Shown here one piece after another: positions 31,984 through 38,705 of a stretch of DNA of 64,000 bases. The notes beneath the pieces were generated by a model. That model was not told the DNA's origin. It searched no databases and was given only the letters and a program-made list of their open reading frames with translations. This stretch comes from Deltaproteobacteria bacterium. Its GTDB lineage: Bacteria; Myxococcota; Kuafuiibacteriia; Kuafuiibacteriales; Kuafuiibacteriaceae. The translations under genes were made by a program, and so were the position numbers. Numbering within the stretch: position 1 is the first letter of the stretch; every line of letters begins with the position of its first letter. The stretch is from positions 192,001 to 256,000 of the forward strand of contig JAVJQW010000008.1 in NCBI GenBank assembly GCA_040218735.1, read 5' to 3'.

Positions 31984-32631
31984 ATGCACGACCGACGCCC
32001 CGCCCACACGGGCGCGATGAGTCCGCTGACGGACTACGAGGAGCGGCTCGTCGTGCTCTTCACGGGCATCGTGCTCGGCCGCTGGGAGGACGTCCGCGCC
32101 GTGCGCAAAGAAGCGCCCGCCGGCGAACCGGACCGCGGCTGGCGCGAGGCCGTGCTGCAGGCCCACCTGTTCGCCGGCTTTCCGCGCGTCGTGGAGGCGT
32201 TCGAAGTCCTCGACCGCGTCGGTGGCTTGGGCACGCCGGATCCGTCGGAGCTCGACCTCGCGGTGGACAACGCCGCCGGTGAAAAGCTCTTCAGTCGCAT
32301 CTACGAAGACCACGCCGACGCCGTCCGGGATCGACTCGCCGAGCACCACGCCGACTTCGGCCGCTGGATCCACGAACACGCCTACGCACGCGTGCTCAGC
32401 CGCCCCGGCCTCGACCCGCACACCCGCGAGCTCCTCGCCGTCGCCGCCCTCACCGCGACCGCGCAGACCCGCCAGCTCGCGAGCCACACCAAAGGCGCCC
32501 TACGGTGCGGCGCGACCCCCGCGCAAATCCACGCGGTGCTCGACGCGATCGAGACGCGCATCAGCTACGACGCGCTGCGAGCGGCGCGCCAGGTGATACT
32601 GAAGTACGCGCCGCTGGATGAAGAGTCCTAA
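31984..32631 (+). CDS. Carboxymuconolactone decarboxylase (CMD/AhpD-like) family protein
   Basis: AHLFAGFP, YARVLSRPGLDPHTRELLAVAAL and HTKGALRCGAT motifs. Confidence 0.85.
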   Translation: MHDRRPAHTGAMSPLTDYEERLVVLFTGIVLGRWEDVRAVRKEAPAGEPDRGWREAVLQAHLFAGFPRVVEAFEVLDRVGGLGTPDPSELDLAVDNAAGEKLFSRIYEDHADAVRDRLAEHHADFGRWIHEHAYARVLSRPGLDPHTRELLAVAALTATAQTRQLASHTKGALRCGATPAQIHAVLDAIETRISYDALRAARQVILKYAPLDEES

Positions 32632-32659
32632 CCCCAACGCCATTCACTCGTTGGGTTGG
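32630..32659. terminator. Hairpin between the convergent CMD gene and the HNH locus
   Basis: CCCAACG-CCATTCACT-CGTTGGG inverted repeat. Confidence 0.4.
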
Positions 32660-32873
32660 GCCCAGCGAGCACTTCATCAGGCGCGTCCGGCTCCCGCACG
32701 GCCGGAGGAGCGCCGTCGTCGCGGAGCAGCGCCTCGACGTAGGGCAGCGCACCGCCGCCGCGGAGCGACTCGTCCCCTCGTCCGCCGTTGCGCCGGGCTG
32801 GTGAACCAGGGGGGCCGTGGACCGCAGTGCTCCGAAGGAGGGCCGCGCTCTCGAACACCGGCTGGTATCGCTC

Positions 32874-33864
32874 TCACGAGCTGCCCTCCGCGCGTGCCGG
32901 TGGCGTCGGATGCGGTTCACGCCACGGGAGCTCGGGACACGCACCTTGCCTGGGCTGGGTAGAGCGGCGCTCGTGAATCTTTCGAGCGATGAAGGCGCGA
33001 CCCAACACTTCGTTCGCCGCGTGAAGGTTGTGTGCGCGACACAGTAATCGCAGCTCGCCGACCACGCTCTTGGCCCCCAGCGCACGGCCGCCCACGTGAC
33101 CGAATTCGAGGTTCGACCGTTCGCTGCACCGCCGTCCGTCCGGGCTCACGTACGTGCACTGCGCGCCGTCGCGCTCGACCACCGCGCGCCGCGTTGCCGC
33201 CGGGACGTACGCTCCGCCCGCCGGCGCATCCTCGGCGGGTTTCGATCGCGGACGACTCGTCTTTCCGTTCTTCCGCTTCGCGAGCCTCTCGACGTACAGC
33301 GCGAGCGCCGCTTCGAAGATCTCCCCGATGTCGGTCCCGGGCGGGGTGAGCTGCTTGGCTCGATCCAAGAGCGCCTTGGCTTCGGCGCTCCCGTCGAAGT
33401 GAAAAGCGAACGTCTCGGCGGTCGCCGCCTCGACGCGATCGTCACTGCTCTTCGCGCCTGGGAACTCGGTGGCGATGAGCATTTCGACCTCGGCCTTGGA
33501 CTTGTTCCGCGCCTGCTCGATCAGGCCGTGGGCGTTGTCGTCGTTCATGAACTTCGAGAGCTTCGCGACGCCGGTCATGTGCAGCTCACCGGTTGCGATC
33601 ATCTGGAAGACCTCGGGCACCCGCCGCGCCGCGCGCACCACCGCGACGCGCCGGCACGCCTGGTCCTCGGTCAGCCCGAGCCTCGACGCAGAACCGAAAC
33701 AGCGAGCTGAAGCCACGCTCGACGTAGAGCTTGCGCCGCTCGATCTCTGCCATGAACCGGAGCGCCTGCACACCGCCATTCAGCTCCGCTCGAAGCGCTT
33801 CGCGAAGTCCGCTCAGGAGATCGTTCTGGGTCATGCAAGACAGGTTGCAAGCGTTCGGGCTCAT
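32874..33864 (-). pseudogene. Frameshifted DUF222-like/HNH endonuclease (myxobacterial multicopy type)
   Basis: N-terminus MAEIERRKLYVERGFSSLFRFCVE (ORF 33586-33864) continues in another frame as LGLTEDQACRR (shift near 33681). C-terminal VPAATRRAVVERDGAQCTYV...C...LEFGH...LRLLCRAHN. Confidence 0.8.
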
Positions 33865-33889
33865 GCGTCGAAGGTATCATCGAGCCCTC

Positions 33890-34094
33890 GAAAGACGATT
33901 CGGCGCGGCTCGAGGAGGACGGTCTGAGACGTGCGAGGACGCACGCCATGGACCGTCAGCGTCCGGCGATGAGTCCAAGATCGAAAACTTCGAAACGGAC
34001 GGCGTTCGTCGAGGAGATAGCCCGGACAGGGCCTTGGGTTCCGTCAACCCCCAAGAGTGAGAAAGAAGATCTCACGCAACTCAGCTTGCGCGAC
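33890..34094 (-). ncRNA. Candidate structured RNA or element end upstream of the HNH gene
   Basis: Six closely spaced hairpins. Block 33990-34094 is conserved in the second copy at 34397-34496, where several stems are retained and loops vary. Confidence 0.4.
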
Positions 34095-34279
34095 CGGCTC
34101 TGCGGAGTGCCGCCGACCATCGAGCGGAGTCTACCGCCGTCCTCCTGCCTACATGGAGCGCGGGCCGGCGGGGCACTCCCGTGTCGGGCGATGGTTCCCA
34201 AGTGCGTCGGGCGCGCCATTCCCCGCCTACGGCCTTTCCAGGCGGGCCAGCTCCGCTAAGTCAACGGCATTGGGACCAA

Positions 34280-34496
34280 GCTGGGTAGAGCGGCGCTCGC
34301 GAATCCTCCGATCGATGAACGCGCGCCGCAAGACAGGTTGCAATCATCCGACTTCATGCGTCGAAGGTATCATCGAGCCTGCCAGGCAGGATTCGGTCGA
34401 AACGCACGACGTTCGTCGACCACAGGGGCCGGACAGGGCCTCCAGATCCGTCACCCCAAGATGAGAAAACCACCTCGGCAACTCGACTTGCGCGAC
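34280..34496 (-). mobile_element. Internally deleted, diverged copy of the HNH unit (MITE-like remnant)
   Basis: 34280-34325 matches 32954-32999 (41/46). 34328-34396 matches 33835-33903 (start codon and -10 box kept). 34397-34496 matches 33990-34094. The homology is seen directly; mobility is inferred. Confidence 0.65.
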
Positions 34497-34676
34497 TGAC
34501 AATCCCGCCTTACCCAGCCGGCGAATCTCATACGTTCATCGCAGCTCCCCACCGCCGTCGGCGCAATTTCCAGTCGCACTATCCACGCGCCGGAGCGTGC
34601 CCTGCGCACGACCGGCGGTGGCCGCCGTCAGCCGCGTTCCTTGTGAGCGCGAGCCGCCAACTGAACAGCGGTGGAC

Positions 34677-35329
34677 TCAGCCCTCCGCGACTTCGCGCAG
34701 GGCGCGCGTCCTCTGCTTCAACCGCGCGAGCTCGATCTTCAGGTCCTCGTCTGCGAACGGATCTTCGAGCGCCTCCGTCGCCGCGTAGTCGTCGAGGGAC
34801 GCGCCGGCCGTCATGCGCTCCACGCTCTGGCGCGCATTCTCCAGGAGCAGGGCGTCCTTCTTCGCGCGCTCCGAGAAGCGCGTGTTCGTGAGGCGCTGCT
34901 CCAGCTCCACCGTCGCGAGCATGCCGAGGTGCTCGGTGCGTTCGCGGGTGAGCTCGCGGATCTCGTTGCTGAAGTCGTCCAGCGCGCGGCGCGCGGTCTT
35001 CGCGTTGTGGCGCGCGATCTCCACGCCCGACTCGGCGCGCTCGAGGCGCTGCACGAGGCGGCGCTTCGAGGCGAGGAGCTCCAGGCACTTTTCGTCGTCG
35101 CCGCGCTTCGCGGCGGTGCGCGCTGCGTAGTCGACACGCGCGACTTCGGCGCGGCGCTCGACCAGATCGTTCTCGAGTTTGTTCTTCGTGTAGAGGAGCT
35201 GCAGCGCCGTCTTGCGGAGCCCTTCGTAGCGCTTTTCGTGGCGCTCGATGACGCGGTCGAAGGCGCGGACGGGCGAGCGCTTCGGCCCCACCACGTCGAC
35301 GATGTCCTTCAGCATGTTCAATACCGTCA

Positions 35330-35330
<1 letters not shown>
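34677..35330 (-). CDS. PspA/IM30-like coiled-coil protein
   Basis: Long coiled coil, ARTAAKRGDDEKCLELL resembles PspA AxxALxxGxEDLA, C-terminal ELARLK. Last gene of a sigma54 operon. Confidence 0.7.
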
Positions 35331-36711
<1,381 letters not shown>

Positions 36712-36715
<4 letters not shown>

Positions 36716-37773
36716 GCCGTTCCTTCTTTCACCGCGGGGAAGGTGAGCTCGAACGTCGTCCCCTCACCCTCCTGCGAGTTCACTTCGATCGAACCGGCGT
36801 GGGCCTCCACCACCTTGCGCGTAATCGCGAGGCCGAGCCCGGTGCCCGAGTCCTTGGACGTGTGGAACGGGTCGAAGATGCGATCGATCCGATCCGACGG
36901 GATGCCCATGCCGTTGTCCTTCACGCGCACCCAAAGCTCGGTGCCCGCGAGGTTGTGCCCCGACGCGATCTCGACCCGCCCCGCGGGGTGCTGCTCGAGC
37001 GCGTCGATCGCATTGCCGACGAGGTTGATGATCACGCGGCGGAGCTGCTCGGCGTCGCCCTTGATCACGGTGCCCGGATCGAGCGTCTTGTCGATCTGCA
37101 CGCCGGTCCTCTCGATGCGATCGCGGAAGGTCTCCACCGCCGACTCGATCACGTCGACCATGTCGACGCGCTCGATCGAGCTGTTCTCTTCGCGCGCGTA
37201 GCGCAGCAGGTGTGAGATCGACTTTTCGACGCGGTCGAGCTCCTCGATCGCGACGCGCGCGTACTCGATGTTCTCTTCACACGTCGGGTCCTCGCCCATC
37301 TGCTGCACGAGGCTCTTCGCAGCGGTGATCGGGTTTCGGATCTCGTGCGCGATCGACGCCGAGAGCTGCTCGAGCGACTTGCTGTGTTTGCCCTGGAGCG
37401 AGCGGCGCTGCGCGGTGACCGTGTGGTCCATGTGCCAGCGGTACTCCTGCTCGGTCCAACGACGCCGCAGCTCCGGCGCGACGAGCGCGTAGTAGCCCTG
37501 CGCGGCGAGGCCGATGCCCCAGGCGCACGCGACGACCATCGCGGGGAAGAAGCCCGCGGTGATCATCAGGAAGAAGACGACCATCGCCCAGACGATGACG
37601 TGTCCGAAGAAGCGGACGCGCCGGTTCGCGAGATCCTTCGCCTCCCGGAGCGCGATCATCTCGGCGGTCGGCTCCTCTTTGGGGCGCCTCGTTCGTTGAA
37701 GTGCGCGCGGTGCTGCCATGGGGCCGACTCGGGGCATCCCGTTCGGGGACGCGAGCTTCGTGGATACAGTCAT
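36712..37773 (-). CDS. Sensor histidine kinase with a short N-terminal 2TM domain
   Basis: H-box AHEIRNP, N-box NLVGNA, DNGMG, GTGLGL. ATGA overlap with the upstream gene. Confidence 0.92.
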
Positions 37774-38705
37774 CTTCCGACCATCGCAATCTGGCGGGGC
37801 TCGACGAGGCCGAGGCGCCGCCACAGGGGGAGAGTGGTGGGGTTCAGGATACCGACGCGCGCCGAGAGCTCGACGATCGGCGTGACGCTCCGGCGGAGGT
37901 TCGCGCGGTGCTCGGGGTTGTCGCGGTAGGCCGCGCGAACCACCGACGCGGGGACCCCGTAGGCGTCGACGACGACGGACGGCGCCTCGAGCATCTGCCG
38001 CGCCATGATCGCGAGGACGAACGGGACGCGCCCCATGAGGTGGAGGCGGTTCATCACGCCGAGCCGCGGCACGTGCTCCTCGATGTAGCGTTTTGCGAAG
38101 CAGATGTGGCGCGCCTCTTCGAGGACGTGGATGCGCATGATGCGGCGGAGCAGCGGGTGGAGGTTTCGGCGCTCGAGGGCGTCGCGCTGCGATTGGTCGA
38201 TCGGCGCCTCGCCGCCGAGGACGAAGAAGAAGAACATCTCCGGGAAGCGGCGCCCCATCAGCGGGACCTGGTTCGCGAGGACACGCTGGATCCATGGGAG
38301 CCCCGGCGCGTGCAGGCCCGTGCGGTTTACGAACTCCTGGAACATCAGCGAGTGCTGACTCTCCTCGATGACCTCGTGGTAGGCGTAGCGGAACGCGGGG
38401 TCCCCGTCGGGCCGGCGCGCGGCGAACTCGAGTAGGCCGCGCGAGAGCACGTTCTCGAAGAACACGCCGACCTTCATCTGGTGCACGGTGTTGTGCAGTC
38501 CGATCCGCGCCTGCGTGGCGGGCGGCAGCTGGCGGTACCAATCGGTGGCGCCCAGCGGGTCGCTCTCGTCCAACGCGAAGCGCGGATCCTCGGGGTGGAT
38601 CGTGTGGGCGTCCCAGTCGACGTCGGCGTAGGCGTCGAAGTGTTTCTTCACCGACTGCGCCGACAGGCGCTCGACCACCTCGGGGTAGGGGCGTGCGGCT
38701 ACCAT
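37770..38705 (-). CDS. AurF-like non-heme diiron N-oxygenase family protein
   Basis: RLSAQSV...DVDW, FENVL, EVIEESQHSLMF, GEAPID and HVLEEARH diiron ligands. Confidence 0.88.
   Translation of the reverse strand: MVAARPYPEVVERLSAQSVKKHFDAYADVDWDAHTIHPEDPRFALDESDPLGATDWYRQLPPATQARIGLHNTVHQMKVGVFFENVLSRGLLEFAARRPDGDPAFRYAYHEVIEESQHSLMFQEFVNRTGLHAPGLPWIQRVLANQVPLMGRRFPEMFFFFVLGGEAPIDQSQRDALERRNLHPLLRRIMRIHVLEEARHICFAKRYIEEHVPRLGVMNRLHLMGRVPFVLAIMARQMLEAPSVVVDAYGVPASVVRAAYRDNPEHRANLRRSVTPIVELSARVGILNPTTLPLWRRLGLVEPRQIAMVGR

Follow-up and report, generated by a model that had tools for sequence, protein, structure and literature searches.

The hairpin-rich sequence preceding an HNH gene very probably belongs to the leader of an insertion-sequence-like transposon and may act there as a promoter/operator region

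HNH proteins of the IscB/HEARO type use an adjacent upstream structured RNA, omegaRNA being the partner of IscB and bridge RNA that of IS110. Classical insertion sequences (IS) of the IS4/IS5 type are bounded by terminal inverted repeats and generate target duplications of a fixed length, and MIC-type elements are non-autonomous cassettes in which a passenger gene is enclosed by IS ends. Here, we analysed a stretch of 64,000 nt (the window) from a myxococcotal genome, in which an HNH gene on the minus strand is preceded by a hairpin-rich non-coding module. An initial annotation, made from the sequence alone, had read this module as a candidate HNH-associated RNA or element end that is conserved upstream of two HNH copies. 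Our analysis indicates that the region is very probably an internal leader segment of an IS-like HNH transposon, and a transposon that has terminal inverted repeats and target duplications and encodes only an HNH protein is the notable thing at this locus, more than the hairpins. As a whole, the observations are best explained, in our judgement with moderate confidence, by a promoter/operator region that works at the DNA level in the leader of this transposon.

A search with the DNA region gave 36 matches in the window's own genome (G000; 11.6 Mb in 70 contigs, 96.5% complete). When the locus and a full copy were searched by blastn against the same genome, sharp repeat edges were found at C29:143933-145730 with a coverage of 23-35x, and this intact copy of 1798 nt served as the reference element. 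The summed matched bases equal 27.3 elements, and at ~27 copy-equivalents the HNH gene is indeed part of a multicopy mobile system, as had been proposed. Copies of the element contain 38 of the 140 contig ends of the assembly, and in contigs from four public DNA runs the summed depth within the element is ~20-45x the flank depth, a ratio that is not a copy number. Read in gene sense, the element consists of a left inverted repeat, a ~570-nt non-coding leader, an open reading frame (ORF) of 330 codons (element positions 602-1594; minus strand in the window), ~205 nt of non-coding sequence and a right inverted repeat; it is ~1.8 kb long and ~43% non-coding, and the HNH gene is its only gene. The terminal inverted repeats are ~21-27 bp, with CAATGCCGTTCACTTAGCGGA as the consensus of the left one. 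A 21-mer search for them in this genome, allowing up to 4 mismatches, returned 44 matches, of which two (C17:196917 and C54:102465) lack the internal sequence of the element, three fell outside the left/right sorting by script, and the remainder are element ends; the 265 matches to a 13-mer end core with up to 2 mismatches are scattered chance matches and uninformative. A small conserved ORF in the leader was considered and rejected: the leader indels are not in multiples of three and tblastx against the related loci gave low-complexity noise only, and therefore the element contains no other conserved ORF. The start codon ATG is changed to GTG in two otherwise intact copies (on C33 and C60; columns 307-311 of alignment A3), and a second in-frame ATG, 10 codons further on, is present in all copies of this genome.

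The insertion sites carry a 10-bp target duplication. Where both ends lie in one contig, the duplication matched at 10/10 positions (C29) and 9/10 positions (C33), and for three left ends located at the start of a contig, a right end from a different contig matched at 10/10, 10/10 and 12/12 positions. A sixth pair, with 9/10, joins ends that are unable to belong together, indicating that the target consensus alone can yield near-matches. Positions 4-7 of the duplicated 10-mer are CTAG or YTAR; by our own reading of the list, YTAR occupies these positions at 8 of 18 left ends (with four more shifted by 1-2 nt) and at 15 of 21 right ends, and in many cases the flank terminates in a stop codon or makes up one half of a palindrome centred on CTAG. 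Several insertions lie in the middle of a REP-like palindrome, ..CGTTATGGCCTAGGCCATAACG.., that is followed by a common ~60-nt sequence (e.g. C46:148727, C14:783, C32:15557, C4:162286 and C49:41464), and a short dispersed palindromic repeat seems to be a preferred target of the element. In the contigs of the four DNA runs, none joined the flanks across the element and no empty site was seen. Of the hallmarks of a classical insertion sequence, terminal inverted repeats and a target duplication of fixed length were found in the element, and an encoded transposase of a known class was not.

The sample for judging structure in the leader, 27 paralogues and one relative, is of low diversity. The relative (G001) is one genome of the same genus, which has a single copy with a 49% identical HNH protein and lacks the second in-frame ATG. 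Among the copies of the window's genome, nucleotide diversity at codon positions 1, 2 and 3 was 0.060, 0.049 and 0.156, respectively, which indicates that the HNH protein has been under purifying selection across the copy lineages; it was 0.148 in the module, 0.125-0.134 in the rest of the leader and 0.127 in the 3′ non-coding region. On average, the module drifts like synonymous sites. Low-diversity islands were found at element positions 361-380, 461-480 and 581-640, and identity to the reference in 30-nt windows was mostly 80-92% (73-96%) across the leader and mostly 90-98%, with dips to 74-75%, across the ORF. Blocks of 8-14 nt in the leader are invariant or nearly so in the 28 copies, the oldest included, and recur in the congener, whose single copy was matched by an nhmmer leader profile (E=7e-13) starting ~210 nt before the ATG. 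Positions identical in the two genomes cluster in the blocks GGTTGACGGA, CTGTCCGG and GCTGACGG as well as in a dyad over codons 5-9; the module contains all three blocks together with a putative -10 motif, TACCTT, 6 nt before the ATG.

The distribution of the module is narrow. In a set of 401 genomes from the phylum, exact matches to the block pair were confined to the window's genome (30 times) and the congener (once), and a pattern search allowing two mismatches returned matches at the level of a reversed-pattern control, so that exact matches alone are meaningful. In public contigs, the exact patterns gave 36 metagenome and 35 genome matches, of which the nhmmer profile retained one, the contig of the congener; the other 70 were rejected as chance, having no leader-profile match. 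The leaders of two further genomes with related elements, G036 and G003, whose HNH proteins are 30-40% identical to that of the window, did not match the leader profile. None of four module motifs stands at a common place in G036, the short word YTGACGG alone recurs in G003, and an apparent likeness of the module to the G003 leader was rejected at an alignment score of 22 versus a shuffle mean of 21.6. The module sequence was thus found in 2 of the 401 genomes, which does not support the idea of an HNH-associated RNA conserved upstream of the family.

Constraint in the module, the promoter-proximal part of the ~570-nt leader of the ~1.8-kb transposon, is limited to a few short blocks and small palindromes, and we infer that these work as DNA. 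It may comprise the promoter of a possibly leaderless HNH gene along with operator sites for a dimeric DNA-binding protein, and the binder could be the element's own helix-turn-helix (HTH) or ribbon-helix-helix (RHH) domains, which would hold expression low. A TAnnnT hexamer stands 6 nt before the ATG in both the window's genome (TACCTT) and the congener (TAGCGT), and neither has a Shine-Dalgarno sequence there, an ordinary one being present in the G036 and G003 elements; the spacing TAnnnT-N6-ATG would fit a leaderless HNH gene. Two dyads of the form GCAAS-N4-STTGC, one in the leader and one over codons 5-9, are ~240 nt apart, both near-invariant among the copies, and have the look of operators recognised by a dimeric DNA-binding protein. 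A terminator scan found one terminator-like site, on the antisense strand, versus 1.3 expected.

The promoter/operator role itself is proposed tentatively, and several observations weigh against it. A sigma-70 consensus scan of the element found no promoter site. A leader of 570 nt far exceeds the need of a promoter, and the leaders of the related elements are long as well (~480 nt in G036 and ~255 nt in G003) and unlike the module. Signs of preserved pairing were also seen. In the 40 base pairs of the initial annotation, which derive from one row (the window copy) of the tested 28-copy alignment, two-sided changes occurred in 10 cells of 7 pairs, versus 4.5 +/- 1.5 in shuffled alignments (reached by 0 of 500) and 4-8 in slid controls. 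At many stems and in most copies, G-U pairs are formed on the HNH-sense strand only, which would fit an RNA. By hand alignment, the congener keeps the outer GACGGTC/GACCGTC helix with two compensatory pairs and one G-U pair, and keeps hairpins at the places of AACG/CGTT and GAAG/CTTC. With one outgroup, this structure signal is suggestive only.

One alternative, which we consider unlikely, is that besides the ends and a promoter the leader is mostly drifting filler with no function, its hairpins arising by chance at 65-70% G+C. The synonymous-like diversity agrees with this, as do the frequent deletions, namely the 190-bp and 86-bp ones of the window and those seen as skips of 67-191 nt in contigs of the four DNA runs. 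Folding of the module is also only slightly in excess of chance. When minimum free energies were compared with those of shuffles, the module gave z -1.57 on the HNH-sense strand (16/200 shuffles folding as well) and -1.96 on the + strand (6/200), and the whole 601-nt leader of the intact copy gave z +1.17 in sense and -1.85 in antisense orientation. The stems CTTGGG/CCCAAG and GTGAGA/TCTCAC are perfect essentially in the window copy alone; the pair 457-473, for example, is standard in 3 of 22 copies. What speaks against filler is that the 8-14-nt blocks stay near-invariant in 28 copies and recur in the congener despite only 49% protein identity, and that 570 nt of it would be unusual in a compact element, long leaders recurring in other lineages.

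Transcription of the leader, or of its proximal module, as a structured RNA, either a cis-acting 5′ untranslated region controlling HNH translation or a non-coding RNA partner of the HNH protein, we likewise regard as quite unlikely. The hairpins do exist, the two-sided changes, sense-strand G-U pairs, compensations in the congener and long leaders of G036 and G003 described above all fit such an RNA, the helix at columns 432-448 of alignment A1 swaps A-U and G-C in 9 versus 8 copies, and the structural neighbours of the HNH domain include the IscB HNH (Z 6.5). However, against these points stand the modest z-scores of the module and the positive one of the entire sense leader, and the covariation detected upstream of the gene was marginal at most across the 28 copies and the congener. 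RNAalifold gave -23.5 kcal/mol with a covariation term of +0.07 for the 28 copies, and adding the congener gave -24.9 (term -0.48) on the sense strand and -20.1 (term +0.98) on the antisense strand. Of the cells in the 40 pairs, 88.7% can pair across the 28 copies versus 87.8% in shuffles, and helices 1, 4, 6 and 7 deviate chiefly through unpaired cells; therefore mutations break these helices without compensation. The diversity of the module at the level of third codon positions, the common leader deletion variants (the window copies and several contig joints) and the restriction of its sequence to two genomes also disagree with a structured RNA, and Rfam cmscan of window positions 32000-36000 on both strands found no family at E<=1, HEARO included. 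The insertion sites have only CTAG in common, so no guide is needed to explain targeting. The module shows no sign of a guide RNA, and statistical and comparative support for the original observation is weak.

Very unlikely, finally, is the proposal that the conserved blocks are internal binding sites of the transposition machinery (subterminal sites or a synapsis enhancer) and not gene-regulatory, for which the two putative DNA-binding domains of the HNH protein and the occurrence of YTGACGG twice in direct orientation, ~90 nt apart, can be cited, since 400-500 nt separate the blocks from the left end and local alignment of the leader with either end scored 21, equal to the shuffle mean of 21.7 +/- 2.8. 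The impression by eye that the module is an internal copy of the right end was rejected on the same alignment score.

With the module assigned to a candidate promoter/operator region of the leader, the arrangement of the window itself can be described (Table 1). All the stems listed in the initial annotation are present on the + strand at the places given: GACGGTC (33918-33924) and GACCGTC (33951-33957) form the outer stem around GTGCG/CGCAC, and are followed by TCGA..AACG/CGTT..TCGA (33990-34012), GCCC/GGGC (34020-34032), CTTGGG/CCCAAG (34033-34055), GTGAGA/TCTCAC (34057-34075) and CGCAA/TTGCG (34075-34090). The second copy of the module is likewise real, appearing as direct repeats D1 (69 nt, 81%), D2 (61 nt, 79%) and D5 (19 nt, 89%) located 400-490 bp further on, and in alignment A1 it lacks the ~86 columns that contain the first hairpin. 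The statement that the module precedes two HNH copies holds for the module only, the second HNH being a remnant of ~23 codons fused by an internal deletion to a 55-nt 3′ piece. The common boundary at CTTGCGCGAC proved to be the edge of a 190-bp deletion in copy 1, because the other genomic copies run on through it and copy 2 is alignable beyond it; the missing leader sequence is present elsewhere (C29 145365-145554). Nor does an element end lie here: one inverted repeat lies ~175 nt farther outward and the other 1.2 kb off in the opposite direction, copy 1 spanning from 34272 (left repeat) to 32635 (right repeat). Copy 2 can be aligned with other copies to ~34567-34585, and its leader is 73-80% identical to theirs, versus ~91% for copy 1. 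Copy 1 is fairly young and damaged, and copy 2 is an old broken remnant; the position of the one beside the other made it look as if two HNH copies were preceded by a conserved module with a common boundary. The flanks of copy 1 show no matching duplication (~5/10 by eye), which fits a rearrangement beside the remnant. For the hairpins the outcome is sobering: the stems are ordinary for the base composition, and the boundary and the two copies came from a deletion and a decayed remnant. In the distal leader (columns 110-147 of alignment A1; window ~34150-34175), a GC-only 9-nt unit, CGGCCCGCG-like, was observed in 1-4 units across copies.

Table 1. Features of the two HNH-element copies in the window
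Feature	Position	Strand	Remark
Sequence directly flanking copy 1 on the right (GGGTTAGGAC, element sense)	32625-32634	-	contains YTAR core; overlaps stop codon of + gene 31984-32631
Right terminal inverted repeat, copy 1	32635-32663	-	degenerate, ends ...GAATGGCGTTG
3′ non-coding region, copy 1	32664-32873	-	~205 nt in the intact reference
HNH gene, copy 1	32874-33864	-	frameshift near 33676-33686; intact copies 330 aa
Dyad GCAAS-N4-STTGC over codons 5-9	33835-33848	.	nucleotide-level conservation in G001
Module of the initial annotation, gene-proximal third of the leader	33865-34098	-	reference positions 367-600; 234 nt
Second dyad GCAAS-N4-STTGC (CGCAA/TTGCG of the initial annotation)	34076-34089	.	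near-invariant in G000 copies, not seen in G001
Junction of the 190-bp internal deletion (boundary of the initial annotation)	34099-34104	.	specific to copy 1
Distal leader, copy 1	34105-34251	-	
Left terminal inverted repeat, copy 1 (CAATGCCGTTGACTTAGCGGA)	34252-34272	-	
Copy 2, fragment from the 3′ part of the HNH gene	34280-34334	-	55 nt; 85% to 32954-33008
Copy 2, HNH gene start and sequence just upstream	34328-34396	-	first ~23 codons; direct repeat D1
Copy 2, shortened module (34397-34496, 86-nt deletion) and more leader	34397-34585	-	5′ side truncated

The HNH protein matched no Pfam family at E<=1, RuvC included, and the NCBIfam model guided_IscB reached 17.2 bits, versus a cut-off of 175, over residues 225-290 (the HNH part) only; together with the absence of an Rfam HEARO match, this agrees with the earlier statement that the protein is not IscB. 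In an AlphaFold model (pLDDT 88), VIA-align structural alignments suggest a similarity of residues 26-138 to ParB/KorB/Spo0J DNA-binding domains (Z 5.5-6.6), of residues 150-203 to MazE/TraM-type RHH folds (Z 4.2-4.6) and of residues 213-292 to HNH nucleases, that of IscB included (Z 5.5-6.8), the modelled structure before residue 213 being helical or RHH-like. All Z values were below 8, a range that the tool calls common, so these domain names are leads only; a Foldseek search of the model against the PDB gave no match at E<=0.001. Among 40 aligned homologues, 26 matched PF01844 (HNH), 13 PF14279 (HNH_5), 11 RuvA_C and 4 DUF222, the DUF222 model PF02720 (best E 1.7e-4) having no match in the window protein. 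Residues C237, C247, H257, C276, H279 and N280 are invariant in the 40 homologues and mark the predicted zinc-bound HNH core. The protein thus has an HNH (His-Me finger) core, the window family itself lying below Pfam detection, and by our own reading of the alignments the middle Asn position of the consensus is Glu in the window-family copies. The protein family is very large, counting 15,791 representative clusters at a threshold of E<=1e-3 and still 9,417 at E<=1e-10, and is both patchy and multicopy among relatives: 5 of 41 genomes had matches, at 47, 30, 11, 3 and 1 (numbers of matches, not of copies). A tblastn search of a plasmid collection with the HNH protein found no match.

The next question is whether the HNH protein moves the element or is carried as a passenger. 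That it is itself the transposase, a sequence-specific ParB/KorB-like DNA binder joined to a His-Me finger nuclease, which would constitute a class outside the DDE, DEDD, HUH, serine and tyrosine enzymes and would require the leader as a cis or RNA component, is somewhat unlikely in our estimate, and we know of no strand-transfer chemistry by an HNH enzyme. In the window's genome, within the limits of its 96.5% complete assembly, a partner element with the same ends was not found, and classical transposase domains are few (two PF01609, two rve, and no PF13586 or DDE_3 over the cut-off). In G036, which belongs to another family of the phylum, other inverted repeats (CTCATGATTCGCCACAAGTC-like) flank the homologous gene, and the element lies next to a REP-like hairpin or within it. 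Copy L188 of this genome has both ends and a 9-bp duplication matching at 8/9 positions, at 9-10 of 12 right ends (by our own reading) the adjoining sequence is the same hairpin half, and in the reference copy, L166, the whole hairpin lies outside the left end. The G003 elements end in CTA at the right junction, and their inverted repeats and duplication were not definable. That one protein family is paired with ends that differ between lineages argues for the HNH protein as the element's own mobility factor.

In a G036 subfamily (L180, L182, L186, L188 and L190), a copy of the REP-like hairpin found beside other insertions was observed inside the element, ~50 nt from the left inverted repeat; an element of this subfamily carries a look-alike of its own target. 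The window's genome also contains a second abundant repeat of ~940 bp with nested inverted repeats (arms of 107, 48 and 51 nt and more) and no convincing ORF, located at C64:127077-128013 (L164:578-1514), with further loci at C60:260697-261697, C41:262823-263419, C9:490211-490554, C23:222947-223374 and C39:73866-74162. A further 102 contig ends fall outside the HNH element; 64 of these are located in repeats that are matched at least 3 and up to 23 times in the genome, and the ~940-bp family accounts for many of them. Beyond the two element copies, positions 34677-38541 of the window hold three ordinary minus-strand genes that were named by eye from their translations: a PspA/IM30-like coiled-coil ORF (34677-35336), a response regulator of the sigma-54 type that contains AAA+ and Fis-like parts (35330-36715), and a gene for a histidine kinase (36712-38541).

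If mobility is driven by the HNH protein, a function would be gained for a very large family that is poorly understood, and a new transposition chemistry would become testable; this would also explain the frequent multicopy genes annotated with an HNH endonuclease signature motif and the DUF222-like genes. If it is a passenger, the element would offer a striking example of hitch-hiking, with a nuclease gene travelling on borrowed ends.

Compared with the described systems, the element resembles IscB/HEARO in having a mobile HNH protein, a long upstream non-coding region and an HNH domain that aligns with that of IscB (17 bits; Z 6.5), but it has inverted repeats and duplications, neither a split RuvC with inserted HNH nor an upstream HEARO RNA or omegaRNA was found in it, and its leader shows no convincing conserved structure. 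With MIC-type cassettes it shares inverted repeats and duplications that surround a gene other than a known transposase, whereas no partner with the same ends was found in the assembly and the protein family is paired with different inverted repeats in G036. The DUF222-HNH genes and mycobacterial REP13E12 are similarly multicopy and combine a helical N-terminal domain with a C-terminal HNH, although the window protein matches no Pfam model. REP13E12/HNH/DUF222 are listed among repetitive elements in PMC10589994. In the openly accessible literature, searched mainly at the level of abstracts, the accounts of DUF222-HNH/REP13E12 describe no ends, target duplications or mechanism, and no HNH-only element with terminal inverted repeats and target duplications is described. 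The closest likeness in form is to the insertion sequences, as the element is ~1.8 kb long, has one gene, ~21-27-bp inverted repeats and a 10-bp duplication with a palindromic core, and is present in tens of copies that break the assembly; unlike in a classical insertion sequence, its only protein contains no DDE, DEDD, HUH, serine or tyrosine recombinase domain and appears instead to combine HTH, RHH-like and HNH parts.

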